Source: Pelagomonas calceolata (lineage: Eukaryota). From it: a stretch of DNA of 64,000 bases. Below, one piece after another: positions 11,504-55,866 of this stretch; the stretch's first letter is position 1; the number at the start of each line of letters is the position of its first letter. A model generated the notes under the pieces. The model did not search any database. It was not told the DNA's origin and saw only the letters and a program-made list of their open reading frames with translations. Made by a program: the position numbers and the translations under genes. Where the stretch lies: NCBI GenBank assembly GCA_918797485.1, contig CAKKNE010000002.1, forward strand, positions 1,612,001 to 1,676,000, given 5' to 3'.

Positions 11504-13921
11504 ATGCCCGGCGTTCAGAGGGACGCGGGCGCGTGGGACAAATCCGACGCGGGAACCGACAGCGATACTGACAGCAGCGACGGCCGCGTCGTACGCGTGA
11601 ACATGGGCGACGCCAGCGACGACGAGGCAACGCCGGACGAGTACCGCTGGCTCGGCGACGAGCACGAGGACCTCGGCCGGGTTGATTCCGTGCCGGCTCG
11701 GCTCGACGGGATCGGCTGGACCGACGACGCCTTCCGCGCGGCGGCACTGCATGGCGAAGGCGACAGCAAGTTCCACGAGGTGCTGGGCCGCGCGGCGGAG
11801 GCCTCGCGGAGCTTGGACCCCTACGACCCGACGTGCCGGAGCTTCTACGTCCGCGTCGACGGCGTCGGTTTCACGAACTGGTCGAAGACGCACGGAATAG
11901 CGAAGCCGTACGACGGCGCCGTCCACGGCGCCTTCGTGAGCGCGGCGGCCGCGACGATGCGCCACTTCAGACAAAAGGGCCTGGGCGTCGTCGCCGCGTA
12001 CACGCAGAGCGACGAGGTCACGTTCCTGTGCGCGGGCCCGGCGGTGCTCGCGGGCGGCGCGTCGGACCCCAGTAGGCGGCTCCTCACGCTCTTCACGAGC
12101 GTCTTCTCGAAGCGCTTCGAGCAGGCGCTGCGCGCGACGAAGCCCGAGGCCGCCGCCGAGGCCTTCTTCGAGGCGCGCGTCGTTGCCGCGGCGACGCGGT
12201 CCGCCGGCATCCTGGCGCTGATCTGGCGCCGCCTCGACGCCACGCGCAACGCCTCGTCGCAGGCGCTGCGGCACCTGCACGGCGTCCGTGTCCAGCAGGA
12301 GCTCCCGCCCGTCGACGAGGCGCTGCTCGCCGACCTCACGGCCGGGGGCGTCCCCGAGATGCGCGCGCGGAGGGCCCTGATGGCGGGGAGCGCGACCGCG
12401 GACGCCGCTCGAGCCTGGCTCCGGAGCCACGCGGAGGGCATTGATGACCCGATCGAGATGATCGGCCGCCCCCACGCGCGGCAGCGGCTCTTGTTAGCGG
12501 AATGTGGCACGCCGTGGGACACGCTGCCGCCGGCGCTTCGGTACGGGACTTTACTCTTCGCCGGCGACGACCGCGGCCGCCACGTTCGGTTACGTGTGCC
12601 GCGCACGCGCGACGAGGCCGAGGCGCTTGAGCGCGCCATCTTCGACGAGCAGTCCTGGGACACTCTTGGCGACGCGCATCCGGAGGCGCCGGCCGCGGCC
12701 GCGGCGGGCCCGGCACGCGGCAGGCCCGTGCCAGCGGCGCGCCCGGCCCCAGCCGCGCCGGTTATTGGACCGGCGCCCCCCGCTGGCTTTGTCCGCGTCG
12801 ACCGGGGCTGTCCGGCCCTCGACCGAGAAGGCCGCGACGACCGGTGGTGCGACGCGGTGGAAACAAACCCGAGCCAGAACGCGTGGGGCCGCCTCGCCGA
12901 GCGCGTCGCCAACGAGTTCGCCGGCGTGCTGCTCTGGGCGAAACCGGTCCAGCCGGCAAGATCCGGCGATCCGTCGGCGGGTTGGCGCGTGGCGGTCCTG
13001 CGCCTCGAGCGCGTCGAGCCTGCCGGACCCACGCTCACGTTCGCCGTCGAGGGCGCGGGGTTCATCAGTCAACAGAAGGCGGCGAAACACGCGGCGGCGG
13101 CATCAGTGGCGCCCCTCCTCGACGCGGCGCTCGCCGCGGACCGGGCGAACGACGTGACGACCGCGCGGCAACGCGCGCGGCCGCTGAGCATCCTCGAGCG
13201 GCTGTCGCAGGCCCGCAGCTGGCCGGCGCCGGAACCTTCGGGAAGCGACGCGGTCACGTGGGGGCCCGAAGGCGCCGTGGCGCGCGCGCCAAGGTGCGCC
13301 AAGGGCGGCGGCGACAAGCTACAGCTCGCCGCGCTCGTCGCGCTGCGCTCGCTCGACCTGGACGCCGTCGCCGCGGCCCCGGTAGCACCCGCACCGCCGC
13401 CGCCGCCGCGCCCGCAAGAACAGTCGGTACCGCCACCGGCGCCCAGCGCGGCCGGCGGCCGCGTCCTCGACCTCGCGATCGCGATCTGCGGCGATACAAA
13501 CGCCGGTCGGCGGCGGGACCGAGGCGGCCGCGAGATGACGCGGGAAGAAGTCGACCAGCTCAAGAAACGCGTCGAGGGCCGGCGGGTGGCATGGGGTTCT
13601 CCGGGCAACACGTCGAGCGGCGTTGTCGAAGATGTTACTCTCATCGGCGCGGACTCGCTCAAGTTGTCTGGATTTTCCGGTCTGGACGTGACGGTGGCGA
13701 CCTACTACCGCCTCCAGGGCGACGGCGAGAAATGGGGCGTCCGCGCGGCCGTGAAGCACCTCGGCCACGACGACGACCGCGTCGCCGAGCTCCGGGCGGC
13801 CCTCGTCCGGCGGAAGCCGCTGGAGTACCAGTCCTTCCCGTGCCTCGTCGTGCGGCAGTCGCGGAAACAAAAAGTGCCGGACAACGTGCCCGTCGAGCTC
13901 GCGTCGCTCGTCGGCGCCTAG
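11504..13921 (+). CDS. Thg1-like 3'-5' polymerase fused to two dsRBD-like domains and a C-terminal PAZ domain
   Basis: Thg1: YVRVDG, KPYD, YTQSDEVTF, FEARV, WRRLDATRN, WDTLPPALRYGT. dsRBD-like: GAGFISQQKAAKHAAA and PLSILERLSQAR...LAALVALRSL. PAZ: LKKRVEGRRV...VTVATYY...LEYQSFPCLVV...VPVELASLV. Confidence 0.85.
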   Translation: MPGVQRDAGAWDKSDAGTDSDTDSSDGRVVRVNMGDASDDEATPDEYRWLGDEHEDLGRVDSVPARLDGIGWTDDAFRAAALHGEGDSKFHEVLGRAAEASRSLDPYDPTCRSFYVRVDGVGFTNWSKTHGIAKPYDGAVHGAFVSAAAATMRHFRQKGLGVVAAYTQSDEVTFLCAGPAVLAGGASDPSRRLLTLFTSVFSKRFEQALRATKPEAAAEAFFEARVVAAATRSAGILALIWRRLDATRNASSQALRHLHGVRVQQELPPVDEALLADLTAGGVPEMRARRALMAGSATADAARAWLRSHAEGIDDPIEMIGRPHARQRLLLAECGTPWDTLPPALRYGTLLFAGDDRGRHVRLRVPRTRDEAEALERAIFDEQSWDTLGDAHPEAPAAAAAGPARGRPVPAARPAPAAPVIGPAPPAGFVRVDRGCPALDREGRDDRWCDAVETNPSQNAWGRLAERVANEFAGVLLWAKPVQPARSGDPSAGWRVAVLRLERVEPAGPTLTFAVEGAGFISQQKAAKHAAAASVAPLLDAALAADRANDVTTARQRARPLSILERLSQARSWPAPEPSGSDAVTWGPEGAVARAPRCAKGGGDKLQLAALVALRSLDLDAVAAAPVAPAPPPPPRPQEQSVPPPAPSAAGGRVLDLAIAICGDTNAGRRRDRGGREMTREEVDQLKKRVEGRRVAWGSPGNTSSGVVEDVTLIGADSLKLSGFSGLDVTVATYYRLQGDGEKWGVRAAVKHLGHDDDRVAELRAALVRRKPLEYQSFPCLVVRQSRKQKVPDNVPVELASLVGA

Positions 13922-13953
13922 GTCGCGGCGCCATGTGTGTATGTTGCACTGTA

Positions 13954-15853
13954 CTAGGAATACTTATTCGGCGACGTAAATGAGGGAGGCGCGTGGAAGG
14001 ACTCCTTGAAGGCCACATATCTCGATAAGTCCGAAGCCAGCGCGCTTTCGTCTCGCAACTCCGCCTCGGACTTCGCGTTGTTGTAGTCGACGCACGCTTG
14101 CGCGACGACGCGTTCACACAACCTTTCCAGATAATGCGATGCCATGGCGTCGTCCATGGTGCACAAGACGGGCAACCGTCCTTGATGGGTCGTCTTCGCG
14201 CCGCCGCCGCCCCGAACCTTGGCTAGGAACGTTATGGTAAATTCGTCGCCACGTCTCTGCGTCTCGACTTCCACTTCTAAAGGTAGATTCGGCTTCCCAC
14301 TCGCATCACAAGCCTTCAGGTCGTCTCTCCTTACTAAATGGCGGGCCTCTCCCGCTTTACTGACGGGCACGGGCTCGCTCTTTTTGAGGGGAAACCGCCC
14401 GACCGTGTAGGGCGTGTCGTAGTCGCGGTCCAGGAAGTCGCGGTCGATGATCGGCTCGGGCAGCGGCGTCACGGGTCTCGTATTGGGCGTCCGCACCCTT
14501 CTAGGTTCCGCACCTGGTTGATCGTAGTCTGAATCGTCTTCGTCAAATCCTGTGTGGGAACGACACCGTCACGAAACTGTCTCCGTTCACTCACGAGGCG
14601 CGTAGACGCCCATGCGGTCGCATCGACGGCGTCACGGTGGCATCGCATCGCGTTGACGCCATCGACGCGAAGTTCAAGTTGAGAAATTGAAGGAAACAGA
14701 CGCTGAGTCAGCACCATCGTCCCCATAATTCTCGTCGGGGTGGAAGCCGTCGTCGCCCCTCACCTCCGAGGCCGTACCTCGTCCTCTACCAACCGTCGTG
14801 CCCGGCCTTCCTTCGTGAAAGCGTTTTTTCGGTTTTGTGGTTCCGGGCCGCGCCGCGGGACCCTCAAAATCAAAACCCGCGGGCATCTCGAAGTCGTCGT
14901 CGGCGTACTCGTCTTCACTTTCTGTTTCTCCTTTCAGTCTAGCCTTCATCTTGGCCAGTCGTCGCGTCTTGCCCGAGGCCAATGCAGCTAAATCGCGATC
15001 CCTCTGCACCAACCGATGCTTCGCTCTTTCCACGGCTAACCGGACCTTCGCTTCTCTCTCCGGAGTCGTCCGGGCTCTTCGTTTACACCACGCGTCCCTC
15101 GCCCTCGATATTTCCGACATCGACGGCTCCGGTTCCAAGGCAGCGCACTTCGACTTTTGGTCGAGCAGCGAAAAGTCCTTCATGTGCCGCTTCAGGAACA
15201 CCAACTGGTCCATGCGATCCTTGTCCCACTGCTTCGACGAGTAGCAGGGGTTGAGCTTCCGGAGCCGTTCGGCGTGGTACGCGTTCGCCGCGTTGATGCG
15301 CCGTTGTTCTCTTTTCGCGCCGATGATGTTCTTACTATTCGAGATCTTGTGTTCCACCGCCGCCACTTCAAATTCGGTGGGCGTCGAAATAATGCTAGCG
15401 AACCTTTTTATCAACCCGACGTTCGCGCTCCGGATCTCCCTTTGTCTTTCGTTGTGGGCGGCCTTCTTCTTGGCCCCGTAGGTTTTGGAACCAAATCTCA
15501 GGTGTTCGTGCGTCGCCGAGTAGGGGAGCCTGCGCGGAGCATTTCTGTCAAGAATGGCCTCAAAGTCGAAAAAGAAACGACCCACGACCTCGTCTCATGG
15601 ACACGAGTCACATCAACAAAGTGAAGGCGCCTCCACACCTCAAAACGCGGAGATCGCACGTGTGGTCCGTGCCCTTCTTGTCGGAGCCCGGTTTGCGATG
15701 CGCGGTCTGCTCGAGCGTCTTTCGGTGTTTGCTGTAGAGTCGGTTCGAGGCCTGGACCCTCCCATCGATGCGCATGACGGGCTTCGGCGCCTTGAGGAGC
15801 TTCTCGTACTGGTCCCGCACGGACGTCGGGCGCTCCTTGGCGGCGGCGCCCAT
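13954..15853 (-). CDS. CFAP97/Hemingway-domain ciliary protein, two introns
   Basis: RQREIRSANVGLIKRFASI, REQRRINAAN...RLRKLNPCYSSKQW; intron 14550-14714 plus one at about 15546-15660; start codon uncertain. Confidence 0.6.
14550..14714 (-). mobile_element. Introner-like intron, family B
   Basis: gtgctgactcagcg...cccacacag; phase 1, restores frame; homologous to 8609-8774. Confidence 0.8.
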
Positions 15854-16208
15854 GGTGGCTGGCTGCCCGCGCGGGCGGTCCGTGGGCTTGGCGTGGGCCT
15901 CGGCGCGGGCTTCGGGCACCCGCGGGCAGCCGGTGCTTGGCTCCTGGTGCGGCTGTGCTGCGGCTTTTGGCGCGGCGTTGAGAGCGCCTCCACTGCCTCC
16001 GCTAGAGGGGCGCCGTCGTCGGAAGGATGCCTGCCCTTGCCGAGGGATGTCCTCGCTCTCGACGGGTCCGCGGGGAAGCCTGATACCGACAAAACCCCGC
16101 ACGTCGACCGCGCGCGGCCGGCCTGACATACCTCGTGCCTGCTCGACGGGATATGTTACTGGCTATGGCCCGTCGATGGGTCAACGGAGTTTTCACATGC
16201 TTCTTATT

Positions 16209-19200
16209 TCACATGAACGGGAGCTTGCCGTCCAATAGGGCGGGGTGGAACGGGAAGTCGTCGCCGACCCCCGGCGCCTCCTCACCGTTCTTGATGACCA
16301 GGCGCTTCGCGTCGCAGACCAGCGACGCCATGTAGGAGAGGGCGGGCAGCTTGACCGCGCGGTTGGCCTTCGGGTAGGCGTACGCGAGCGCCGCGACGAT
16401 GCTCATGAGGACGTCGGGCGGGCACTGGGCCTCGTTGAGGATGACGCGGCAGTGCTGCAGGTTGTTGCAGCCCTGGATCCCGGCGTACGTGTTCACGAAG
16501 AACTCGTGCGCCGTCGGGTGCGTCAGGCCCGAGTCGACGAAGAGCGACGGCGGCACGTTCATGGAGCGGTCGTTGTCGGTGCCCGACTCGCGGCTCGGGA
16601 AGACGCGGACCCGGCTCTTGGTCATCGGGCAGTAGGTCAGATGCACCTCGCCGTCGAAATGCGCGGACGCTTTCTCGCGGATCCGACGCTTGATCGCCGC
16701 CGGCTCGAGCTCCAGCATCCGGCGATGGTCCTCGCCCGCGAACGCGCCCGTGCGGAACGCGACGACGAGCTGCGGTGGACCATTAATTTCTGCGAACTGG
16801 CTTAGCACGTCGCAGACGGCGAGGCCGATCACATCCGCGAGGTGCTCGTCCAGGCGCGCGTCCAGGGGCGCGACGCGCGACGCGAACCGGAACTGCGACA
16901 TGAGTTTGTCGACGGTGCAGGCCGCCGTGACCATCGAGGGGATCGCCGAGTCGTAGGCGCCGGCGAGCGTGACGTGCACGGCGACGAGGGCCGTCGGCGC
17001 CGCGCCCGTCCACGGGTGGAAGTCCACCGGCGGCTCGCCGTTCGGCCTCGCGGACTCCGCGGAGACGACGGCCCGGTTCACGCCGCCGAACTTGGCGTTG
17101 ATCTTGGCGGCGATCGCGCGGACGATGTCCCGGTACCGCGCTGATCCCGCCGTCTTCAGCGACTCGACGGTGACGCACGACGTCATGACGCCCGTCTGGT
17201 GCTGGAACCGCTTGATCACACCGTAGTCGTTCTCGCTCAGGGACGCCTGGGTTTTCTTGATGACGGCCAGTACGAGGTCCGGCTTGGCGACGCCGCAGCG
17301 CTGGCAGGCTCCATACACCTCGTGGGTCACGTCGCCAACAGAGGAATCCGGCCGGACGACCGCCACCAACACCGGGCCGGGGCCGCCCCGCCCCGACGGG
17401 TCGAACGGGTCGCCGAGCTGGATGTCGATGTCCCTGCACGCGCGGCGGAGTTCGTCCACGTAGTTCCTGACGGCGTCGGGCGACGCGCGGCCGCCGCCCA
17501 TGTCGAGGACCAGGACGTTCCGGTGCTCGGGCGCCGCGACGCGGAAGACCTGGTTCTCTTGTCTCCACTCGCCGAGCTTGTGCCCCCCGAGCTGGAGGAC
17601 GCGTCCTCGGTTCCGCGCGAAGAGAAGCGGCGCCGGAAAAATCTTGGCGACGACGGCGAGCGATCGCGGCGCGAGCTGGAGCCCGATCGCCGCGAGGGCC
17701 GGCGACGACGTGATGCGGCTCCGCGCGACGTGGTCGACGATCTGCCCGTGTCGCGCGGAAGGCCGCACGGAGAGCAACCTGATGATTTCGTCGGCCATGT
17801 TGATGCCGCGCGCGTGCTGGCCCTCCTCGAGCCGCAGGCGCTCGGCCGGGATGTAGATGACCTTCTCGATCTTCTTGCCGTCAGCGTCGCGCTTGGGCTG
17901 GCGCCGCTTAAGGCCGTCCTCGCCCATGACCTCTACGTACTCGAGGCCCGCGTCGATGCGGATGACGGGGTGGTGCGGAAACCGTAACGGGTGGCCCTTG
18001 CGCTCCTGGTACGTGGCGATGGAGATGGTCTCGCCGTTGCGCTCGAAGGTCATGTCGCTGGCCGACGTGGCGACGAGGCGGCCCTTGTCCTTGAAGTTCT
18101 TGCGCGAGATCTCCGCGAACTCGTCGGCCCCGCCGAAGTCCTTCCGCAGGATCGTGACGTTCTTGCGGTGCAGCAGCTGCTTGAGCTTCTCTACGTCTTT
18201 CGGCGAGCGCGGGCCCCGCTCGCCGAAGAGCGCGATGATCAGGTCCGCGACGGTGGAGAGAGCGCCCGGCGTGCGCACCGCTGCCTTCGCCACGAGGTCG
18301 ACCGCGAGGCACATGCCCGCCTCGCAGTTGCGCACCCCCACGTCGACGCCGAGGAGGATGTCCAGGCCGCCCTCCCGGCAGCGCACCGGCTCGCCCTGGA
18401 CCAGGTACGTGCCGCTGCCGAGGTCCCAGTACCCGTTCTGCGTCATGTGCGCCTTGATCGCGAGGTCGATGATGGTCGAGAAGTGGTGCCGCTCGCCCGT
18501 GCAGGCGTCCACGAGCTCGCCGCTCGCCGTCCGCGCCACGTCGACGGCGGTGCTCCGGAGCGCCTCGGCCACGTCGATGGTGGTGGCCGCCTGCAGCTGC
18601 ACGCGCCACCGGCGCCACGGCTTGCCGGCCACGGGCGCGACCACGACGCCCGACGCGGACATGTGCGGCTCGAGCCGCCCGCACGCGTAGAGCATCCGCG
18701 CGCCGTCCGAGAAGACCTGGACGCGCGCCTGTTCGCCCACGGCGCGCATCGCCTCGAGCGTCCGCCGCTTCTGCGTCTCGGAGGGCTTGCGCGTGCCATC
18801 GGCGAGGACCTCCTCGGGCCGGGCGCCCGCGCCCGCGGGCGCGGCGACCACCGGGGGCGGGGGCGCCGGCGCGGCGTCCGGCGCGGCCGGCGCGGCGTCG
18901 CCGTCGGCCACGAACTCCTTCTTCAGGTGCCGGACGTGATAAACCCAGATCGTGTCCGTGGCGGCGCCGGGCGCCGGTACGAGGCGCCAGACGTTCGTAG
19001 CCACCGGCGCTTCTCTATAAGGCACCCCCAAAGACGGACCCCGCGGCTCGATCCATCCGCCGCCGACGGTGAGCGCCGAGAGTCGATCTTCGAGCGACCC
19101 GCCCGGCTCCACCGTGGACAGCTGCCGCTCCTCCGTGCCGACAATATCGTGGTTGTCGATCGGTATCAGCTCGCCTCGACCGCGGCCGCGGCCTCCACCG

Positions 19201-19313
19201 CCGCGGCCTCCGCCGCGGCCTCCTCGGCCGCGGCCGTCGAACGGGCGCCGCCCGCCGCCGTAACCGCCGCCGCCCTCGTGCGGCCGGCGCCTGCCGCCGG
19301 CGCCGCCGTACAT
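16209..19313 (-). CDS. AGO: Argonaute protein (RG-rich N-terminus, PAZ, MID, PIWI), predicted slicer-inactive
   Basis: PAZ ISIATYQ...LRFPHHP...YIPAE.L.L..GQ; MID YGVIKR...TSCV...KINAKFGGVN; PIWI NVPPSLFVDSGLTHP...EFF...GIQG...LAYAYPKANRAVKLPA. Confidence 0.93.
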   Translation of the reverse strand: MYGGAGGRRRPHEGGGGYGGGRRPFDGRGRGGRGGGRGGGGRGRGRGELIPIDNHDIVGTEERQLSTVEPGGSLEDRLSALTVGGGWIEPRGPSLGVPYREAPVATNVWRLVPAPGAATDTIWVYHVRHLKKEFVADGDAAPAAPDAAPAPPPPVVAAPAGAGARPEEVLADGTRKPSETQKRRTLEAMRAVGEQARVQVFSDGARMLYACGRLEPHMSASGVVVAPVAGKPWRRWRVQLQAATTIDVAEALRSTAVDVARTASGELVDACTGERHHFSTIIDLAIKAHMTQNGYWDLGSGTYLVQGEPVRCREGGLDILLGVDVGVRNCEAGMCLAVDLVAKAAVRTPGALSTVADLIIALFGERGPRSPKDVEKLKQLLHRKNVTILRKDFGGADEFAEISRKNFKDKGRLVATSASDMTFERNGETISIATYQERKGHPLRFPHHPVIRIDAGLEYVEVMGEDGLKRRQPKRDADGKKIEKVIYIPAERLRLEEGQHARGINMADEIIRLLSVRPSARHGQIVDHVARSRITSSPALAAIGLQLAPRSLAVVAKIFPAPLLFARNRGRVLQLGGHKLGEWRQENQVFRVAAPEHRNVLVLDMGGGRASPDAVRNYVDELRRACRDIDIQLGDPFDPSGRGGPGPVLVAVVRPDSSVGDVTHEVYGACQRCGVAKPDLVLAVIKKTQASLSENDYGVIKRFQHQTGVMTSCVTVESLKTAGSARYRDIVRAIAAKINAKFGGVNRAVVSAESARPNGEPPVDFHPWTGAAPTALVAVHVTLAGAYDSAIPSMVTAACTVDKLMSQFRFASRVAPLDARLDEHLADVIGLAVCDVLSQFAEINGPPQLVVAFRTGAFAGEDHRRMLELEPAAIKRRIREKASAHFDGEVHLTYCPMTKSRVRVFPSRESGTDNDRSMNVPPSLFVDSGLTHPTAHEFFVNTYAGIQGCNNLQHCRVILNEAQCPPDVLMSIVAALAYAYPKANRAVKLPALSYMASLVCDAKRLVIKNGEEAPGVGDDFPFHPALLDGKLPFM

Positions 19314-19732: not shown

Positions 19733-20527
19733 TTAGCCAGGCGGTGGCGGCGGAGCCGTCGGCGGCGGCGGCGACGCCGTCCGCTGCGCCGCCTCGGGAT
19801 CCAACTTCGCGAGCGCGGAGTCCTGCGCGTCGCGCAGTACGGGGTGCGCCAGCAGCAGGAGGAGGTAGGACTTGAGCTTCTCCTGCGAGCGCGTCGTCTC
19901 CATGACGTAGGAGCTCCGGTGCACCAGGAGCTTCCGGAGCGTGTCGTAGACGGCCTGGACGTCGCGGACCGGAGGCGCCGCATTCTCGTGCAGGTAGATC
20001 GCGTCCAGGAAGAAGTCTCCCTTGTTTTTTAGTTCGAACTCGCCGGTCGCCACCGGTACGGCCCGGCTTCGACCGAAGACCACCAAACATCGGTCGACGG
20101 CGCCGTCCGGCCGCGCCGTCCCAAAGGCAGCGCCCAGCACGTTGTATAAACTAGAGAAGTCGAAGGGCGCGTCGGCGACGCCGTCGTCCTCCTCCTCGAA
20201 GGCGTCACGGCGCCGCGGCTGCGCCACGCTGTTCAGCGTCGCGAGCATGATATCGCGCTCCGTCGGCGCGAGGAGCAGTTCCGCCTCGGCGTCGCGCAGC
20301 ACGACGAGGCCCCACTGCGTCGTAGCAGTTGATAAGCTGGACTTCTGCGTGATCCACGTCCGCAGCGCCGGCAGCACGACGGCGAGGCGCGTCGGGCCGT
20401 CGGGCCGCCGCGCGTCGAAGGCGTCGTGCATCTCGAGCCCGACGTCGAGCGCGACGCAGATGCGCTCGACCGTGCCGCCCTGTTCCGCCTTGCGGCAGTA
20501 GGCGTCGAAGCCGTGCGAGGACGGCAT
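19733..20527 (-). CDS. BABAM1: BRISC/BRCA1-A complex member 1 (MERIT40)-like vWA protein
   Basis: ERICVALD, FDFSSL, RCLVVFGRS, FFLDAIYLHE, LLAHPVLR. Confidence 0.8.
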   Translation of the reverse strand: MPSSHGFDAYCRKAEQGGTVERICVALDVGLEMHDAFDARRPDGPTRLAVVLPALRTWITQKSSLSTATTQWGLVVLRDAEAELLLAPTERDIMLATLNSVAQPRRRDAFEEEDDGVADAPFDFSSLYNVLGAAFGTARPDGAVDRCLVVFGRSRAVPVATGEFELKNKGDFFLDAIYLHENAAPPVRDVQAVYDTLRKLLVHRSSYVMETTRSQEKLKSYLLLLLAHPVLRDAQDSALAKLDPEAAQRTASPPPPTAPPPPPG

Positions 20528-21035: not shown

Positions 21036-23678
21036 ATGGCGGACACCCCGGCATCAACAACCGGCACGAGCCATGATTTTGACCTGTCGAGCGACGAGGA
21101 GGACGACATCCTCCAGAACCTGAAGCAGCAGGCCCAGCGCGGCACACGGAGCTCGGCATCCTACGACCCCGACGCGTCGTCGAACTTCGGCAAGACGACG
21201 GCGTCGTCGGAGGGCACGCCGAACTTCGAGTCCATGCGCGACGCGTTTCGGGAAGCGGGGATGGAGGCCCTCGAGACGAAGTCGCCCGTCGCCGCGCCGC
21301 CGACCGTGGCGAGTGCCGACGAGTCGATCCGGGTGGACTTTGGCGCTGCCGCGCAACGGCAGTCGCTCGCGCACCAGTCCATCGCGTCGGTCGACGGCGT
21401 GATGCTGCAAAGCAGAGACGGAGGTGTCGATGCGGTCGCCGAGGAGCCCCAGCCGCAAACGGACGAGACGTCCGTCTACAGTCCGCCGGGAGCGGAGGAG
21501 GAAAAAGCACCTCTGGCGACCGACGCCACGTCGGTGTATAGTCCACCTGGCGCCTCGGAAGCCCAACCGACGGTGAACACGTCGGCCGACGAGTTTGCTG
21601 CGTTAGCCGCGGCGCAGGAGGACGACTCCGAGTCCGAGGAGGAAGAAGGCGACGATCCGGAGGACCGGCAAGCCCGCGAGGACGTCGGCGCGGCTCTCAA
21701 ACCCGCCAAAAAAGAAGCCTTGGAGCGCCTCGTCGAGCAGTTGCAGCGCGACAACGATAGGTTACAAGCTTCCTTACAATTAGCCTATGAACGGGCCGAA
21801 GCGGCCAAGGGTGAATGGGAGGCTGAACGCGAAGGGTTGGTGCGCCAGGCCAAGGAGGCCGCCACCGAAGCTAAATTAGCGATCGCGTCATCTAAAAGTC
21901 CTACTAAGAGGGAGCCCGGGGAACTGGCGAAGAGCGCGATGGACCCGAGGGCGTCTCGCCTTGCCGCGGAGTTACAGCTAGCAAAAGAAAGAGATGCGTT
22001 GCGGGATGAGGTCAATCAATTGAATGCTTTAAGAGCCAAGGACCAGCAGACCATCAAGCAACTCCAGAGGCAGCCGCCGACGCCGCCGCCGCCGCGGGCG
22101 CCGCCGCCCGAGCAGCGAGCTTTTCAAGATGTGGAAAGGAGGTGTACCGATCTAGAAAGGGAGCTCGAGGACCAACGCGCGGCCCACGAGTACCGGATCC
22201 ACGCTCTTAGAGATGAATTTGAGAAGCTGCGAGACGCCCACGAGCGGAAGCTGCGCGCCGTGAAAGCGGAGGCGGCGCGGAAGGCCAAACAACAACCAGT
22301 AAGGAAGGCACCTACACTGACAGAAAACACGGTGGTAGGCCCCAAGAAGGCCGCCGGCATCTCGCGGCAGGCCCTGCACGCGATCGAGGAGCAGAGTCGC
22401 AAGGACCATGAGGCGAAACTAAAAGCTGAACAGAAGGCCGAGCGCTTACAGAGAGAGCTGGAGGAGGCGAAACAGTCGTTGGTGCGCGCGCGGAACAAGC
22501 TCAAGGCGTCGAACGCGCAGCGCGGGTCCACCGAGACGCTCGCTTCTGTGTCTGCTACCTCATCACCGCCGCCGCCGCGACGGTCGCGCGAGAAGTCGCC
22601 TCACAAACGGAGAGATGAGGAGGCATCGAGTCCGGCGCCGCCGCCGCCCGCGAAACGTCGGGGCGTCGACGTAGGGACGCAGTCACCACGTAGAAAACAC
22701 AAAGACGCCGAGGCGGCGTCGCCCGCGCCTCCACAAAAGCGCCGCGGCGTCGACGCCGGCACGCAGTCGCCCAAGCCTAGGACGACCTCGACCGGCGTGC
22801 AGTCGCCGCGGCCTCCCCAGGAACCGCGGCGCGCCGAGTCGCCCGCGCCGGCTAGAAGAGCGCCGCGCACGGTCGAATCGGAGGACCAAACTTTAGTTGC
22901 TTCTGTCGAGTCCGTGCCGCCGCCGCCTCCACCAGTGGCGCCTGATCTCGAGGGCGAGGCCACGAAGGAGCAGCTCGAGTTGAGGGCGCTGCGGACGGAG
23001 CTCGAGAGAGAGCGCGAGATCAATAGGAGACTGGCGGACGAGCGCGACGCGCCGGAAGAAGAATTAGGTGTGTACAAGGAGCGCGCGGCGGCGTTGAGAG
23101 ATGCGCTGGAGCAGGCGACGCGCGACGCGGAGAAGGAAATGCGGCTGCGGAGAGAAGCCGAGGAGACGCTCCATGCGGTTCAAGCCCAGAAGCCTGAGAA
23201 CGATGCTCTGACGAGTGAAGTCAACAAACTACGAAGTGAACATCGAGACATGGTGCGCGAATTGTCGTCGTCGCGGGAGACCGCACGCCTCGCGGCCGAG
23301 GACGCGGCTCGCTTGCATCGTGCTTTACAGTTACGAGGACCAGGAACGACGACGGAAGTTGCCGTCGCGGCCCTAGCGGCGCAGGTCGATGAACTTGAGT
23401 TAAGAGCGAAGCGCCGGCAAGAAGAAGTGGCTTCTGCTGTATTGGAGGCGAACGCGTCCGCGAAGCTCGAGCTCGCGCGCCACGAGACGCGGGCCGCGGA
23501 AGCCCTCGCGGCGAAGGACGCGCAGCTCATGCGGTTTCGCGGCGAGCTCGACTCGCTCTTGGACGCGTTGCGAGCCGCGGTCGCCGACAAAGCCAGAGCT
23601 CAGGCGGCCGTCTCCGAGAAATTGGCCCAGGACCACCTCACGTTTGCCAACGAAGCCTTCGACGTGGGCGCCGAGTAA
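21036..23678 (+). CDS. Coiled-coil protein, CEP162-like C-terminus
   Basis: KDAQLMRFRGELDSLLDALR resembles the CEP162 C-terminus; long coiled coils. Confidence 0.6.
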   Translation: MADTPASTTGTSHDFDLSSDEEDDILQNLKQQAQRGTRSSASYDPDASSNFGKTTASSEGTPNFESMRDAFREAGMEALETKSPVAAPPTVASADESIRVDFGAAAQRQSLAHQSIASVDGVMLQSRDGGVDAVAEEPQPQTDETSVYSPPGAEEEKAPLATDATSVYSPPGASEAQPTVNTSADEFAALAAAQEDDSESEEEEGDDPEDRQAREDVGAALKPAKKEALERLVEQLQRDNDRLQASLQLAYERAEAAKGEWEAEREGLVRQAKEAATEAKLAIASSKSPTKREPGELAKSAMDPRASRLAAELQLAKERDALRDEVNQLNALRAKDQQTIKQLQRQPPTPPPPRAPPPEQRAFQDVERRCTDLERELEDQRAAHEYRIHALRDEFEKLRDAHERKLRAVKAEAARKAKQQPVRKAPTLTENTVVGPKKAAGISRQALHAIEEQSRKDHEAKLKAEQKAERLQRELEEAKQSLVRARNKLKASNAQRGSTETLASVSATSSPPPPRRSREKSPHKRRDEEASSPAPPPPAKRRGVDVGTQSPRRKHKDAEAASPAPPQKRRGVDAGTQSPKPRTTSTGVQSPRPPQEPRRAESPAPARRAPRTVESEDQTLVASVESVPPPPPPVAPDLEGEATKEQLELRALRTELEREREINRRLADERDAPEEELGVYKERAAALRDALEQATRDAEKEMRLRREAEETLHAVQAQKPENDALTSEVNKLRSEHRDMVRELSSSRETARLAAEDAARLHRALQLRGPGTTTEVAVAALAAQVDELELRAKRRQEEVASAVLEANASAKLELARHETRAAEALAAKDAQLMRFRGELDSLLDALRAAVADKARAQAAVSEKLAQDHLTFANEAFDVGAE

Positions 23679-25219: not shown

Positions 25220-25609
25220 TTACTTCTTGGAGGCCGACTTCTTCGGGAGAAGCGTGGCGTGGATGTTCGGGAGAACACCGCCGGACGCGATCGTGACCGA
25301 GCCCAGGAGCTTGTTGAGCTCCTCGTCGTTGCGGACGGCGAGCTGGATGTGGCGCGGCACGATGCGCGTCTTCTTGTTGTCGCGCGCGGCGTTGCCCGCG
25401 AGCTCGAGGATCTCGGCGCAGAGGTACTCGAGGACGGCGCCCATGTAGACACCGGCACCGACGCCGACGCGCGAGGCGTACTTGCCCTTGCGGAGGTAGC
25501 GGTTGAGGCGCGCCACCGGGAACTGGAGGCCAGCCTTGGACGCCGAGGACGACGAGCCGGAGGACTTGGCCTTGCCCTTGCCGCGGCCACCTTTACCTTT
25601 GCCAGACAT
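25220..25609 (-). CDS. H2A: Histone H2A
   Basis: AGLQFPVAR...[22 protein letters not shown]...GGVLPNIH. Confidence 0.98.
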
Positions 25610-25620
25610 GATGTTTTGGG

Positions 25621-25867
25621 GGTGTTTTTTTTCCGATGTGTTGGAGTGGAGAGGCAGCCCGCTGGAGCGCACACATTTCCGGGGCGTCAGCGCGCCGCTA
25701 ATTTTTGGCGACGAATCATTTTGCGACCCCAATTAGCGGCTCGCTCACGCCCCGAAATGTCACAATTTCATTCGTCGCCAAAAGTTAGCGGCTCGCCTGC
25801 GCCCCGGAAATTCGAGCAGCACATCGGGCTGCCTCCCCCAGTCCAACACATCGGAAACAAAAACACC
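25621..25867. promoter_or_regulatory. Palindromic bidirectional histone promoter (arms about 25621-25727 and 25759-25867)
   Basis: Arms are imperfect reverse complements sharing ttccgatgtgttgga, gaggcagcccg, atttccggggcg and gccgctaa.ttttggcgacgaat. Confidence 0.8.
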
Positions 25868-25873
25868 ACAAAA

Positions 25874-26224
25874 ATGGCCAAGACCCCCTCCAAGAAGTCG
25901 GCGAAAGCCCCCAAGAAGGCCGGCGGCGCCAAGAAGAAGAAGTCGCGCACGGAGTCGTACTCGACGTACATCTACCGCGTGCTCAAGCAGGTGCACCCGG
26001 ACACGGGCATCTCCAAGAAGGGCATGTCGATCATGAACTCGTTCATCAACGACATCTTCGAGCGCATCGCCCTCGAGGCCTCCAAGCTGTGCCGCTTCTC
26101 CAAGAAGGCGACGCTCTCGTCCCGCGAGATCCAGACGTCCGTCCGCCTCATGCTCCCGGGCGAGCTCTCCAAGCACGCCGTGTCCGAGGGCACCAAGGCC
26201 GTCACCAAGTTCTCGAGCTCGTAA
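25874..26224 (+). CDS. H2B: Histone H2B
   Basis: [21 protein letters not shown]...[13 protein letters not shown]. Confidence 0.98.
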
Positions 26225-44094: not shown

Positions 44095-44346
44095 GACAGC
44101 TGTGCGGATGCTTCTCCGCACCCCTCGCATCGCGCAGACGACAGCTCATTCGGGACGCGTCCGATTCAAAGCACAGCGTAGCACAGCGGAGGCGCAGCGC
44201 AGCAATATGATGGCAATTACGGCCGGCACGAGGACAGTGATGGACGGCCAGGGCGCGTGGGCGCTGCAGGCGGCTGCCCAGTGATCACGCAACCGGGGGG
44301 AATTCCAGCGGTGGCGCGCAGGACCTGCCGGAGACGAATTGGCACC

Positions 44347-47300
44347 ATGAGGCTGCCCAAAGTCCTGCTGATGATGGCAGCCGCCCGGGCCCAGGAGCTC
44401 GAACAAATACGCCTCGAGTTCTTGGTAGATCATCTCCAGGAGACCATGGCCGACGCCTGGGACGTCACGGGCACGGTGGCCGAGCTCGTCGAGTCGGCCG
44501 TGCCGGACCACCAAGCTGATTTGGTAGGGGGCGCCGAAGCTTTACGCAAGGCCATCTTCGCGTCCCTGCGCATGTTGGCCGAAGAGGGCCGGGTCTACAT
44601 GATGTACGCGGGCTTCGAGGCGGACGGGACCTTCTGCGGGTACTACGGCGAGGGACAGAGCTCGCGAGGCGACGACTACTACTACACGCTGCTGCGGGGC
44701 TGGGACTGCGCCTGGAACTACGTGGATTCGTGCGCGACGGACTGCGCCGGGGACTGCGTTGCAGACGTGACCGTGCCGTGTGTTGATGGCTACAAGGGCG
44801 CCAACCCCGATTGTAGGCGCTACTACGACGTGTCCAGCGACACGGGCGTACCTGATACTTGCGCCTCGGCCGTGAGCTGCACGACGTATTTTGATGATCA
44901 CTACAACACGGCAGTCTACGACCCGCGCATGCGGCCCTGGTACACTAAGGTCAATGCCGCGACGCCGCGCGCCTGGTCGAGCGTCTACCCCTTCGCGAGC
45001 GAGGGCGTGCTGGGCATCACGGCGGCCTGGCGCTTCGCCAACAGCGGCGGCGGCGTCGTCGGGTTGGATCTGAAATTGGGCTCCATAAGACAGATCGTCG
45101 CCGACGCCTACGCCGCCGCCGACGGCTCATTCACGCCGGCCTACGTGACGACGGCCGATGGTTTATTAGTGGCCGCCTCGGATTCTAGTGTTGCGCTCGT
45201 GGATGGTGACGGAAATCCAGTAACCGCTACAAATTGCTCGTCGGCCGCGATCCGCGCCGGCGAGGCGTACCTGGCGACGTCAACCAGTTTCACGGGCCGG
45301 GCGGACGCGATCCTAGAAATAGAGGGCGTCCCGTACTGGCTCTTCCGCGGCGCCGTGGCCGACGCCTACGGCCTCGACTGGAGAGTCATCGCATTACATA
45401 CAGCCGCGTGCCGCGCGGGCTACGGTTTGCGGGGCAGCGCCTGCGCGCCCTGCCCCAAGGGCGCGGCGTCGGCCGCTGGAAAACCGTATTGCGACGTCCG
45501 CGCGCACCACTACCGCTTCGTGGAGAACGCGGTTGAAGTGTATGCGTGCCCGGCGCACGACGACGCCTGCCGCGGCCAGCGCGGTGATCATGGAGCCGGC
45601 GACGCGTTGTGCGCGCGCCGGGCGACGGGCCCGCTCTGCATGAGATGTATGAGGGGGCACCACCGGGTCGTCACGCGGAACGGTAGAGCAAGATGTAAAA
45701 AATGTGGCGACTGGCGGTCCATCGCGGGCGTCTACGTTTATTTGGTTGTTTTTGTGGGCTTGGCGTTCATCTGGTTGGCGTGGGCGCGCAAGGCGTTAGC
45801 GCGCGAGGTGCGGACGCTCGCCGACCGCTTACGAGCTAGAAGCCGGCTCCAGGGCTTCGACCGCGCGCTGCCGACGCTCTGGATCGTGGCGCGCCAGGCC
45901 ATCTACGCGATCACGGTCATGTCTCAAGTCAGGAGCATCGAGCGGTTGAGTCTGCCGCGGCCGTATAGTCATCTCATGGACGCGCTGACGGCGTTCGCGA
46001 TCGATATTGATAAATACTTGGGGCCGTTGGCGTGCTTCGAACTTGGGTATTATCAACAATTGATATTTTGGACTCTGTTACCTCCCGTACTGTTGATGAT
46101 AGCGGTGTCCCTGACGGTCGCGTCGGTCTCGATGCATCAATTACTCGCTAAACATCGCCTGACCTCAAAATTCAAGCGCCAGGACGAGTTCCGACGATCC
46201 TCAAGACCATCATTGCAGGAAGCTTCAAGAAGGGCCTGGGAGGCCGTGCGGACGCAGATTAATGCTGTGGTTGCCTTTAGAGCAAATACCCATTACAAAC
46301 CACCTATACAAGAAGACAAGGTCGTGACGATGGCGGACGCGCTACGTAAAGTCGTCACGGGCTGGGTCATCCTGTGCATCTATCTCCACTCATTTATTTG
46401 TGGGGTCATTTATAAGGCGTTCGTCTGCGCAAGGCCTTTACAGAGTGAAAAGTTCTTGACGGGACGAGGTGAGAAAGCTTTTTTACGGGCGGACTACGGC
46501 TTGGTGTGCGGCACGCAAACACACAAAGCTTACGTATTGTACGCTACACTAATGTTAGTAGTGTACGCGACCTTCCCCGCTATATTAGCGTTACGACTTT
46601 ATATCAACAGAAAAGACGGTAAACCGGACAAGTATCTAGGGTTCATGGTGTCCCACCTGCGGCCGGGCGCCTGGTGCCTCGAATGCGTCGCGATGTGGTA
46701 TCGCATGGTGCTAAGTGGCGCCTTGTGGTTGTTTTTCCGGAGGGATGATGATGTGGTGCGCTTGGGGTTGTGTGTGGTCTTCGTCATCTTGTTCGTGGCC
46801 GCCATCAGTTTTTTGCGACCCTATGCCACGGAAGGTAAGAGGCAAGCGTGCACGATGATCCAGCACTCTCTCTTAATTTTCTTCTGTCTGGCTATTGCCG
46901 TCAAAGGTGAACTTTTCAGTCCGAAACGCTTCGCCTTGTTTGGCACTTTGGCGTTTGTCGCCACGATTGGACTGGCGTGTGGCGTGGCCTGGCATGTCTG
47001 GCGGGCCGACGTTCGAGCACTCGTGGATGGCCTGCACGCCCATAAGCTAGATAGACTGGCACTCAGAAGGTTGTATGAAGGGGCCGAGAAGGCGGTGATC
47101 GGTGAAGCGATCCTCGAAGCGGCGTTGGTACCGATCGAGGGCGGCGTCGAGGCTAGTGACGAGCGCTGGGAGTTTGTGGAGAGCGAGCTGTTCGGGTCGC
47201 ATGGGGCGACGCGCGACGTGTTGCGGGACGTCTGGGACGACCCCGGTACCGAAGATCTGGAGCCCTGGCTTGGGGCCGTAAGAGCCCAGGCGTCGCGGAA

Positions 47301-48435
47301 GCTCTGGGCGGAGAATGATGACACGATGACCGTGGAGGCCTTTGCGAGTGACGTCGACGAGGCGGCGCCCTGGCTTCGAAATTGGCTGCGACCCTTTGTG
47401 GAGAGGGCCTACGCTTGCGTCGCTGAAGAGGGTCCCTTGAAATGTTGCGACGCGCTCTTGGCGTTCGACCTGGCGGTCATTCACGCGCTGGGCGGGGAGT
47501 GCACCGTCGACCAGGTGCGCAAGAAGCTCCACGGCCTGGCGCACCAAGCTACAGATAAAAAACACGCCTGGTCCTTCGCGCATGGTAAGGTGGCGCCGGC
47601 ATCATCATTTTCTGATGCTTTAAGAAGGGCAAGTCGTACTATTTTACATCAGCACGACGACCCCTACGCCTTCGTCAAGCCCGAGCAGCCGCCGCTGTGC
47701 TCGCGATATACTGTTTTAGCTATCCGAGCCAAGGCCCTTGCGTTACAATCAGACGACGCGATGGCCCAGATAGCTAGAGTGGCTTTGGAGGACGACGCAG
47801 GTCTCAAATTGGTCGAACGGGGCTCTGTTGGTTTAGAGATGAGTGTCGAGCAGCCGTCGCTGACGGATGCACAACTGGCGGCCTACGTGCAGACGCTCGG
47901 CGGATCATCTTTAAGGGATCGAGTGGACGCGGACGCGCTGCCGGACATTTTGCACGATTTAGCTGGTTGTGCTCATACTTCTTTTCGTAATGCTCTAGAG
48001 GCCATCGTCAAGGCGTGCCCCGGCAGCTCTTTGCTAGGTGGATGCGCGTCGGATACCGCGGTCAAATCTGTCTCGAGGATGCGCGCCAAGGTCCACGAGT
48101 ATCGAGCCGAGGAGGGGGCGACGTGGCCGGCCTGCGCGCGCGTCCAGGATCCGCTCCGCGCGACCATACTATGTGAAAGTAGTGCGGTCATGCTCGCGGC
48201 ACTGGAGCAGGTCGAGGCAAGACCGTTCCGGCTGTTGCGGCTGAAGAACAACCTCGCGAGCGAGAAGAAGCCCTTCAACCTCCACGCGGTCCTCGAGTAC
48301 ACTACAAAAGCGGTCGGCGTGCCGTTGGTCGTCGAGGTCCAGTTGTTGTTTGACGACCTGCTCCCGCTCTTCGAGCACACGCACAACCTGTACTCCGTCT
48401 ACCGGGCGCGGTCGTTCGCCGAAAGGCACACGTGA
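44347..48435 (+). CDS. Receptor-like protein: signal peptide, dCache, Cys-rich region, multi-TM, RelA/SpoT-like nucleotidyltransferase
   Basis: YDPRMRPWY...WSSVYPF...GVVGLDL; C..GPLCMRC; several TM helices; KSVSRMRAK...DPLRATI...LKNN...H...EVQL...H..Y...R. Confidence 0.75.
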   Translation: MRLPKVLLMMAAARAQELEQIRLEFLVDHLQETMADAWDVTGTVAELVESAVPDHQADLVGGAEALRKAIFASLRMLAEEGRVYMMYAGFEADGTFCGYYGEGQSSRGDDYYYTLLRGWDCAWNYVDSCATDCAGDCVADVTVPCVDGYKGANPDCRRYYDVSSDTGVPDTCASAVSCTTYFDDHYNTAVYDPRMRPWYTKVNAATPRAWSSVYPFASEGVLGITAAWRFANSGGGVVGLDLKLGSIRQIVADAYAAADGSFTPAYVTTADGLLVAASDSSVALVDGDGNPVTATNCSSAAIRAGEAYLATSTSFTGRADAILEIEGVPYWLFRGAVADAYGLDWRVIALHTAACRAGYGLRGSACAPCPKGAASAAGKPYCDVRAHHYRFVENAVEVYACPAHDDACRGQRGDHGAGDALCARRATGPLCMRCMRGHHRVVTRNGRARCKKCGDWRSIAGVYVYLVVFVGLAFIWLAWARKALAREVRTLADRLRARSRLQGFDRALPTLWIVARQAIYAITVMSQVRSIERLSLPRPYSHLMDALTAFAIDIDKYLGPLACFELGYYQQLIFWTLLPPVLLMIAVSLTVASVSMHQLLAKHRLTSKFKRQDEFRRSSRPSLQEASRRAWEAVRTQINAVVAFRANTHYKPPIQEDKVVTMADALRKVVTGWVILCIYLHSFICGVIYKAFVCARPLQSEKFLTGRGEKAFLRADYGLVCGTQTHKAYVLYATLMLVVYATFPAILALRLYINRKDGKPDKYLGFMVSHLRPGAWCLECVAMWYRMVLSGALWLFFRRDDDVVRLGLCVVFVILFVAAISFLRPYATEGKRQACTMIQHSLLIFFCLAIAVKGELFSPKRFALFGTLAFVATIGLACGVAWHVWRADVRALVDGLHAHKLDRLALRRLYEGAEKAVIGEAILEAALVPIEGGVEASDERWEFVESELFGSHGATRDVLRDVWDDPGTEDLEPWLGAVRAQASRKLWAENDDTMTVEAFASDVDEAAPWLRNWLRPFVERAYACVAEEGPLKCCDALLAFDLAVIHALGGECTVDQVRKKLHGLAHQATDKKHAWSFAHGKVAPASSFSDALRRASRTILHQHDDPYAFVKPEQPPLCSRYTVLAIRAKALALQSDDAMAQIARVALEDDAGLKLVERGSVGLEMSVEQPSLTDAQLAAYVQTLGGSSLRDRVDADALPDILHDLAGCAHTSFRNALEAIVKACPGSSLLGGCASDTAVKSVSRMRAKVHEYRAEEGATWPACARVQDPLRATILCESSAVMLAALEQVEARPFRLLRLKNNLASEKKPFNLHAVLEYTTKAVGVPLVVEVQLLFDDLLPLFEHTHNLYSVYRARSFAERHT

Positions 48436-55384: not shown

Positions 55385-55866
55385 GGTCTCCCTGTAGCTT
55401 ACGGTCCTGGTTCTGCGACGCCCGGCGGTGGGCGGAGGTGTAGTTTCCACTTTCCACGAGTGGGGTTGTGGCCTCCGGGCAGCCCGGCGGCCGCTCCTCG
55501 CGGTGCCGCTCGGCCGGCGCTGCCAAGCTCTCTGAGCAGCAAAGGCTAGTGCCTCTGCTAGGCGAGTGTGACGCGAGGCCCCGCGAGGGCGTCGCGCGCG
55601 AGGCGTGCCTGGGGCCACACGCCTGGAGCGGTCCTCCGCCCCGCCTGTCTTCAAATGGTCTTGTGTGAAACCCCCAAGCTCTCCCAGCGCTCGGTGTTTG
55701 CGCGCCGCGCCCACGCCCCAGCGGTGGTGACGGGCGCTTCCGGCGAGGCAGCAGCACGCCGTGACACCGCAGCAAGCGCACCACCGCAGAGAGACAAGGG
55801 CAGCACGCCGTAAGAGGCAGCCCCCTCTACAGACAGCAAGCGCCCGGCCGCCGCCGCAGCGTAAGG

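Follow-up and report, generated by a model that had tools for sequence, protein, structure and literature searches.

What does an Argonaute do when the residues that cut RNA have been replaced? The question is raised by a gene of Pelagomonas calceolata on a stretch of 64,000 nucleotides (GCA_918797485.1, contig CAKKNE010000002.1, positions 1,612,001 to 1,676,000), here called the window, which is algal nuclear DNA judging by its light-harvesting protein and histones. From the alignments and the relatives described below we read the encoded protein as an expressed, full-length Argonaute with a replaced slicer site, which probably acts as a small-RNA-guided clamp, binding complementary RNA without cutting it. 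The features on which this reading is built are, with residues of human AGO2 as the reference for the replaced positions:

16209..19313, minus strand: Argonaute open reading frame (P0001), 1034 residues in a single open frame, AGO clade.
19170..19313, minus strand: RG/RGG-rich disordered N-terminal tail, residues 1-48, from the sequence and from a predicted local distance difference test (pLDDT) below 50 for residues 1-44.
17814..18260, minus strand: PAZ domain, about residues 352-500, found by our own hidden Markov model (HMM) of outgroup PAZ domains and missed by Pfam.
17847..17969, minus strand: beta-hairpin inserted into PAZ and specific to the clade, residues 449-489, from alignment and model.
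17223..17261, minus strand: extended loop ahead of Y697, in the position of the nucleotide-specificity loop.
17091..17225, minus strand: MID pocket with Y697, K701, S712 (17178-17180), C713, K737 and K741, from alignments.
16974..16976, minus strand: H780 replacing catalytic D597, from alignments.
16845..16856, minus strand: glutamate-finger position (E637), R820 or E823, not conserved in the clade.
16749..16751, minus strand: T855 replacing catalytic D669, from alignments.
16323..16325, minus strand: S997 replacing catalytic H807, from alignments; K in four other clade lineages.
16308..16310, minus strand: A1002 replacing R812, a change confined to the two closest lineages; the relatives P0315, P0248 and P0235 keep R.

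An earlier interpretation, made from the letters alone and here called the sequence-only reading, had placed the gene at 16209..17230, which is the 3' third of the frame, from the end of MID through PIWI. It was right that the frame is full length with an RGG-rich N-terminus: the first 60 of the 1034 residues contain 3 RGG and 7 RG.

That the protein is an Argonaute is clear from several searches. Pfam reports Piwi alone (E 1.9e-29, 103 bits, cut-off 28.9). A sequence search of the PDB gives 27 matches, all of AGO type by name or length, with human AGO2 and Arabidopsis AGO10 at the top. The PAZ domain scores 31 bits (E 1.2e-8) when our PAZ HMM is run against 901 six-frame pieces of the window. 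The outgroup behind this HMM, which is used throughout, consists of 113 mostly full-length AGOs, chosen among the matches of one search and the best 150 of 1538 matches of another. Identity to other AGOs is 19-31%, and about 17% to known AGO-clade structures in a structural alignment.

The AlphaFold2 model, computed from an alignment of 78 rows, has a pLDDT of 83 and a predicted template modelling score of 0.83. Its top Foldseek match is human AGO2 (E 4.7e-49), with a template modelling score (TM) by target of 0.81. This score is 0.77-0.84 for most listed AGO-clade chains, 0.70-0.73 for two target-paired AGO chains and 0.70-0.75 for PIWI-clade chains, among which Siwi and Mili rank below the AGO chains. 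The protein is thus predicted to have N, PAZ and MID domains in a bilobed fold. By its PDB and Foldseek matches it is nearer to the AGO clade than to the PIWI clade; the tree below was built without a labelled PIWI outgroup.

The slicer tetrad, DEDH/D, is replaced. According to the sequence-only reading, the canonical GxDVxH reads AVHVTL, RDGV reads RTGA and YAH reads MAS, and all three descriptions are exact: H780 lies at 16974-16976 and aligns with D597 of AGO2, T855 at 16749-16751 with D669, and S997 at 16323-16325, where the frame reads YMAS, with H807. The fourth tetrad position, E637, and the change of R812 to A1002 had been omitted. E637 aligns with R820 in L-INS-i, in a column that is E for 45 of the 49 outgroup rows, or with E823 in a pairwise phmmer alignment, and E823 is lost in the deeper relatives P0248 and P0235. 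Against human AGO2, neither phmmer nor L-INS-i finds an intact tetrad; the positions are filled by H780, R820 or E823, T855 and S997. Among the outgroup AGOs the D597 position is D in 111 of 113 and the D669 position in 109; none has lost both aspartates, so the loss seen here is more than chance.

How old is the loss? Relatives were found at about 96, 85, 63, 43, 33-38 and 25% identity, the last being Aureococcus anophagefferens KAK7234460.1, mislabelled as a dienelactone hydrolase. In a FastTree phylogeny (530 columns, 55 sequences, three short clade fragments omitted) six clade members including Aureococcus group with a local support of 1.0 on a very long branch. Long-branch attraction is possible, yet the members also share a PAZ hairpin and a longer loop before Y697. 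The hairpin has 38-48 residues in seven clade members including Aureococcus, against 12-16 in 102 of the 113 outgroup AGOs. The loop, which we take (in part from PMC12908457) to be the one named nucleotide-specificity loop, spans residues 684-697 and has 14 residues here, against 9-10 in 94 of the 113. Judged from these alignments, the slicer loss is old and clade-wide out to Aureococcus.

Six clade lineages cover the tetrad. The D597 position is H in five of them and Q in one (P0079), the D669 position is T, T, T, C, C and G, and the H807 position S, S, K, K, K and K, while the E637 position is R, K or D. Could such a site still cut? The histidine at the D597 position and the adjoining lysine or arginine might form a metal-free acid-base site that retains cleavage. 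It would suit such a site that H persists in five of six lineages down to 25% identity and that most lineages are basic at E637 and H807. However, P0079 has Q, this protein itself has S at the H807 position, and the step from D to H is one base change that is also seen in 2 of the 113 outgroup AGOs. To our knowledge no RNase H fold cuts by a metal-free acid-base site. We give this alternative hardly any probability.

The gene is transcribed. Sense reads occur in all three raw poly(A) runs, which come from one sample, with a depth that falls from 7-23 close to the 3' end to 0.3-3 close to the 5' end, and antisense depth is below 1. The mates of these reads lie on the same strand as those of a spliced minus-strand neighbour, and no joint is listed within the frame. 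Further, contigs from three of three marine RNA runs (two studies) span much of the gene. With an intact and expressed gene and a tetrad that is replaced throughout the clade in proper alignments, the non-cleaving effector suggested by the sequence-only reading seems well founded. That reading would have been abandoned for an unexpressed and neutrally evolving gene; the poly(A) RNA settles the first half, and on the second the evidence for constraint, given below, is mixed.

If the protein does not cut, does it still hold a guide? Y697, K701, S712, K737 and K741 correspond to Y529, K533, Q545, K566 and K570 of AGO2 (Y529 through the AGO10 row and L-INS-i). The sequence-only reading had noted a pocket that keeps Y, K and K while TQC has become TSC, and this is what we find (TSC at 17175-17183). 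Relative to the canonical monophosphate pocket Y, K, C, K and K are kept, as is the register of the C-terminus, which is hydrophobic; Q has changed to S and R812 to A. All six clade lineages that cover these positions retain Y529, K533, C546 and K570, and five retain K566. Among the other residues that presumably hold the guide, the clade mostly keeps K709, R714, Q757, Y790, R792 (as K), R795 and Y804, and S798 has become K or R.

The TSC motif had been read as a possible adaptation to unusual 5' ends such as triphosphates. The motif does not support this. Of the 113 outgroup AGOs, 105 have Q at the Q545 position and two have S there with D-D-H intact. Clade members show S, Q or G, with Q in P0079 (Y-K-Q-K). 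The Argonautes that use triphosphate guides, the WAGOs, carry HKQK, in which Y has become H and Q is kept (PMC12908457; PMC10101689). Known triphosphate binders thus change the tyrosine and retain the glutamine, whereas here Y697 is kept and the glutamine changed, so TSC is no triphosphate signature and was rejected as one. The longer specificity loop, found across the clade, and the change at R812, confined to the two closest lineages, are nevertheless real, and with them the guide 5' end could be of more than one chemistry.

How would a clamp of this kind work? The guide 5' end, most likely a monophosphate, would sit in the MID pocket, its backbone would be held by the retained K899, R903, Q947, Y980, K982, R985 and Y994, and its 3' end would be seated in PAZ. 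The former acidic metal site, now filled by H, R/K and K/S, should be unable to hold two magnesium ions, and such a basic site would suit gripping the backbone of the target. The longer PAZ hairpin and specificity loop likely tune guide length and the choice of the first base. Silencing of transposon and repeat RNAs may, by analogy with diatoms, be handed to partners recruited by the RGG tail, through chromatin or DNA methylation or through a translational block. In diatoms, the small RNAs are reported to derive mostly from transposons and repeats (PMC12867755; PMC4247016).

Several points weigh against this picture. The type of guide and the downstream effect are drawn mainly from diatoms. 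The fold match is partly circular, as the input alignment of the model consisted of AGOs. R710, H753 and R761, to which we also ascribe a guide-holding role, are mostly lost in the clade, R812 is lost in this lineage and K566 in Aureococcus. The protein also evolves fast: in the marine RNA contigs, the 40 listed of 95 base differences amount to 23 non-synonymous against 9 synonymous codon changes (a naive dN/dS of about 0.9 per site), and against the relative at metagenomic locus L001 the raw pN is 0.38 and pS 0.39. The third positions of the gene are 80-100% GC, and because of this synonymous counts are depressed.

Could the gene then be an Argonaute in decay, or under weak constraint, while its lineage loses RNA interference (RNAi), transcribed but with little function? 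The very long branch, a naive dN/dS near 1 and the low identity to other AGOs would agree with it. However, long intact reading frames persist in lineages that are 25-45% identical, the apparent breaks in L001 are introns, and the guide-binding motifs are kept. Further, 14 environmental variants differ by a median of 3.8%, against 6.6, 11.8 and 5.1% in three neighbouring genes (14 members per gene, clusters bounded at 90% identity; of ten neighbours queried, four were missing and another three belonged to clusters of one or two). Variation is lowest in PIWI, which has the smallest share of informative sites (2.9%). In the comparison with a relative at 48% identity, 90 synonymous differences are counted where saturation would give 108, and still 330 of 685 residues agree, where chance would give 6.5%. 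L001 and L002 differ by 1 synonymous and 4 non-synonymous changes in 522 codons, which is too few to use. Diversifying selection was also considered and dropped, as the three neighbouring genes are more variable. On these mixed results we read the protein as fast-evolving yet constrained; decay is in our view very unlikely, and the guided, non-cutting clamp is retained.

A number of observations concern the relatives themselves. A metagenome scan with P0001 gave 52 pattern matches and no locus, and one with P0248 gave three loci (L001, L002 and L003). The gene in L001 contains four short introns, at about 686-751, 1516-1601, 2164-2225 and 2385-2445, which are best read as GC-AG, and L002 has the same introns where it is covered. 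Three of the L001 introns have a similar GC-rich, self-complementary sequence that suggests an introner-type family; introners occur in pelagophytes. Introns of this type explain truncated gene calls such as P0080, P0095 and P0112. That the relatives are pseudogenes was rejected, since introns account for the breaks in L001 and L002 and probably also for those in P0004/P0029, P0079 and P0230. In L003 the AGO fragment at 1-443 ends after residue 387 and is followed by unrelated sequence, a truncated copy or a chimeric contig.

The environmental variants P0025, P0022, P0078 and P0312 combine blocks of tens to more than 100 residues from the 96% lineage with others from the 85% lineage, through recombination between diverged alleles or through chimeric assembly. 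P0079 has an N-terminal CCCH zinc finger at residues 33-56 (Pfam zf-CCCH, 23.2 bits, cut-off 20.5), which is unusual for an Argonaute. In the Aureococcus orthologue (P0235/P0087) about 80 extra residues interrupt PIWI immediately ahead of the D669 strand, and the record KAK7234460.1 is without part of PIWI. The P0004 cluster includes four records, of the 63% lineage, whose contigs are of near-equal length (41.7-41.8 kb); they could be one region assembled repeatedly or a discrete element.

How does this Argonaute compare with known ones? It shares the N-PAZ-MID-PIWI fold and the Y/K/K/K pocket residues with human AGO2, Arabidopsis AGO10 and the AGO of Ectocarpus. It differs from canonical AGOs by the extra PAZ hairpin, the longer specificity loop and degenerate QKRHH and TxRP motifs. 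The nematode WAGOs likewise form a lineage-specific, divergent clade with an altered MID pocket, and they are mostly non-slicing. Their pocket is HKQK (PMC12908457), whereas it is Y-K-S-K here and Y-K-Q-K in one clade member. The AGO of Ectocarpus has a disordered N-terminal tail as here, and brown algal AGOs are described as keeping the full DEDH (PMC12867755) that is replaced in this Argonaute. The AGOs of the diatoms Phaeodactylum (Pt2_47611) and Thalassiosira (Tp3_1029) were in 2009 described as having poorly conserved catalytic motifs, presumably impairing cleavage, and as a divergent algal clade far from known groups (PMC2724275); by that description they are similar to the present one. 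By eye, the N domains of these diatom AGOs also have an insertion after the second strand, as here (supplement of PMC6284064).

A dead tetrad alone is ordinary, since Argonautes without slicer activity are common (PMC10101689). What the loss marks here is an old pelagophyte clade, in abundant marine algae, and because this clade has its own PAZ hairpin and a longer 5' loop it may serve as a natural experiment on silencing without slicing. No study of a pelagophyte Argonaute was found in a literature search that reached few subscription papers.

Does the Argonaute work with a neighbour? The genes around it include one that looks like a templated 3'-5' polymerase of the Thg1-like protein (TLP) type with a PAZ-like end, and its features are:

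11504..13921, plus strand: open reading frame of a putative Thg1-like (TLP-type) 3'-5' polymerase, 805 residues (P0263), from Pfam, PDB and HMM matches.
11840..12187, plus strand: Thg1 catalytic domain, residues 113-228, Pfam Thg1 with E 3.3e-17.
12314..12436, plus strand: UBA-like domain inserted in the Thg1 fold, residues 271-311, below the Pfam cut-off.
12872..13144, plus strand: region of alpha-beta-beta-beta-alpha order, about residues 457-547, dsRBD-like by eye, unconfirmed, in a low-confidence model.
13466..13909, plus strand: PAZ-like domain, residues 655-802, of the canonical AGO type and without the clade hairpin, from HMM and HHalign.

Its stop lies 2288 bases from that of the Argonaute, with one gene between them, and a letter-identical copy of the 805-residue protein is present in public protein sets. 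D119, D170 and E171 occupy the metal-binding positions (D29, D76, E77), and the best PDB match is the bacterial Thg1-like protein 4kgk (E 2.9e-6). The HINNLYN motif is described as specific to Thg1 and absent from repair TLPs (PMC12632743). It is absent here too, and the aligned stretch resembles a bacterial TLP. In having the carboxylates and no HINNLYN the protein is like the Bacillus thuringiensis TLP (4kgk), Dictyostelium TLP4 and Acanthamoeba TLP2. It is unlike standalone Thg1 proteins, as most are described to be (PMC2904730), by its UBA-like insert and its C-terminal PAZ-like domain.

The PAZ assignment comes from several comparisons. A profile of 112 outgroup PAZ segments matches with 27.7 bits (E 1.6e-5) among the 901 six-frame pieces; the maximum among the 1666 reported of 2000 shuffled controls is 5.5 bits. 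This domain and that of the Argonaute are the only two significant PAZ matches in the window. HHalign of the C-terminus against PAZ gives 88% with E 3.1e-6. For the C-terminal piece Pfam gives PAZ as its sole match (E 0.016, 15.6 bits, against a curated cut-off of 28.8). In the pocket for the RNA 3' end the HHalign alignment keeps the YY pair and differs at the other positions. A PDB sequence search with the PAZ part gave nothing relevant, and NCBIfam was blank, as were the Atlas features and structure, which is evidence neither way. For region 457-547 Pfam gives no hit; dsRBD rows reached only E about 1, and the best Z, 4.3, was to other folds. The single-sequence model (pLDDT 39.5) is too poor to use, and fold searches with it were uninformative. 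That the domain is a recent copy of the PAZ of the Argonaute was rejected, as the hairpin is absent and the clade profile gives 3.3 bits, against 10-26 with ten size-matched outgroup profiles.

Plus-strand RNA from the poly(A) runs is seen at both ends of the gene and is low or absent in the middle. No fusion of Thg1 and PAZ was found in the literature, most subscription papers being outside the search, nor in the supplement of PMC2904730, where PAZ, UBA and Aureococcus are absent, and we take the gene to be undescribed and new here.

The two genes could form one pathway, in which the slicer-dead Argonaute reads small-RNA 5' ends that the TLP has modified. The TLP would grip the 3' end of a duplex through its PAZ and extend the recessed 5' end in the 3'-to-5' direction on the overhang. 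Guides with an extra 5' nucleotide, or with a transient or lasting triphosphate, would then be passed to the Argonaute, where the longer specificity loop and the changes at S712 and A1002 would make room. This would account for a PAZ-like domain on a protein of the Thg1 family with intact metal-binding carboxylates and, as in repair TLPs, without HINNLYN. In vitro, TLPs are reported to lengthen short duplexed RNAs along 3' overhangs; what the two most duplex-active TLPs act on in nature is stated to be unknown (PMC11404450). The window's two PAZ domains lie only 2.3 kb apart stop to stop, and that of the TLP is, as said, no recent copy of the other.

Against a common pathway, the 3.1 kb downstream of the Argonaute in L002 contain no Thg1 match, and neither do L001 and L003. 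The fused protein forms a singleton cluster and no homologue was found, though no deep search was made. No listed RNA piece bridges 12671-13374 of the TLP gene, where the depth is 0-2.4. The Argonaute keeps Y697, unlike HKQK binders, and its loss of R812 is recent. Thg1 chemistry passes through a triphosphate intermediate and includes the removal of pyrophosphate (PMC8127993). Besides the Argonaute, no RNAi-related Pfam family occurs in the 20 + 94 of 187 listed reading frames of the window that were scanned, about 114 in all, so that an RNAi gene cluster is not supported, and Rfam gives no hit on the window.

The sequence-only reading had itself tentatively linked the pocket to the ends that Thg1 chemistry leaves. 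The basis it gave, TSC, does not support this, and the full Thg1 reaction removes the pyrophosphate, but the PAZ-like domain on the Thg1-like neighbour is a better basis for the same idea. We regard a shared pathway as a plausible hypothesis on these sequence grounds, and as unlikely on balance. If true, RNA silencing would for the first time include a 3'-5' polymerase, the TLP family would have a natural substrate other than tRNA, and pelagophytes would have a small-RNA pathway without slicing. Whether or not the neighbouring Argonaute is its partner, a TLP with a PAZ-like domain points to small-RNA duplexes as substrates.

Between the two genes lies a third:

13945..15917, minus strand: intervening spliced gene with a weak CFAP97-like match, from Pfam and RNA, with no sign of membership in the system.

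It has two spliced introns, 14549-14713 and 15529-15658, and reads from other places match these with loose ends, which points to a repeated intron family. Directly upstream of the Argonaute, at 19733-20527 on the minus strand, lies an expressed gene of 264 residues without a Pfam family; by eye it may be like the vWA protein BABAM1/MERIT40. Long frames without a Pfam family are present at 44257-48435 (plus strand, 1392 codons), 49655-55714 (minus strand, 2019 codons), 21036-23678 (plus strand, 880 codons) and 58385-60910 (plus strand, 841 codons). At 25220-26224 there is a divergent histone pair, in which H2A is read from the minus strand and another core histone from the plus strand.

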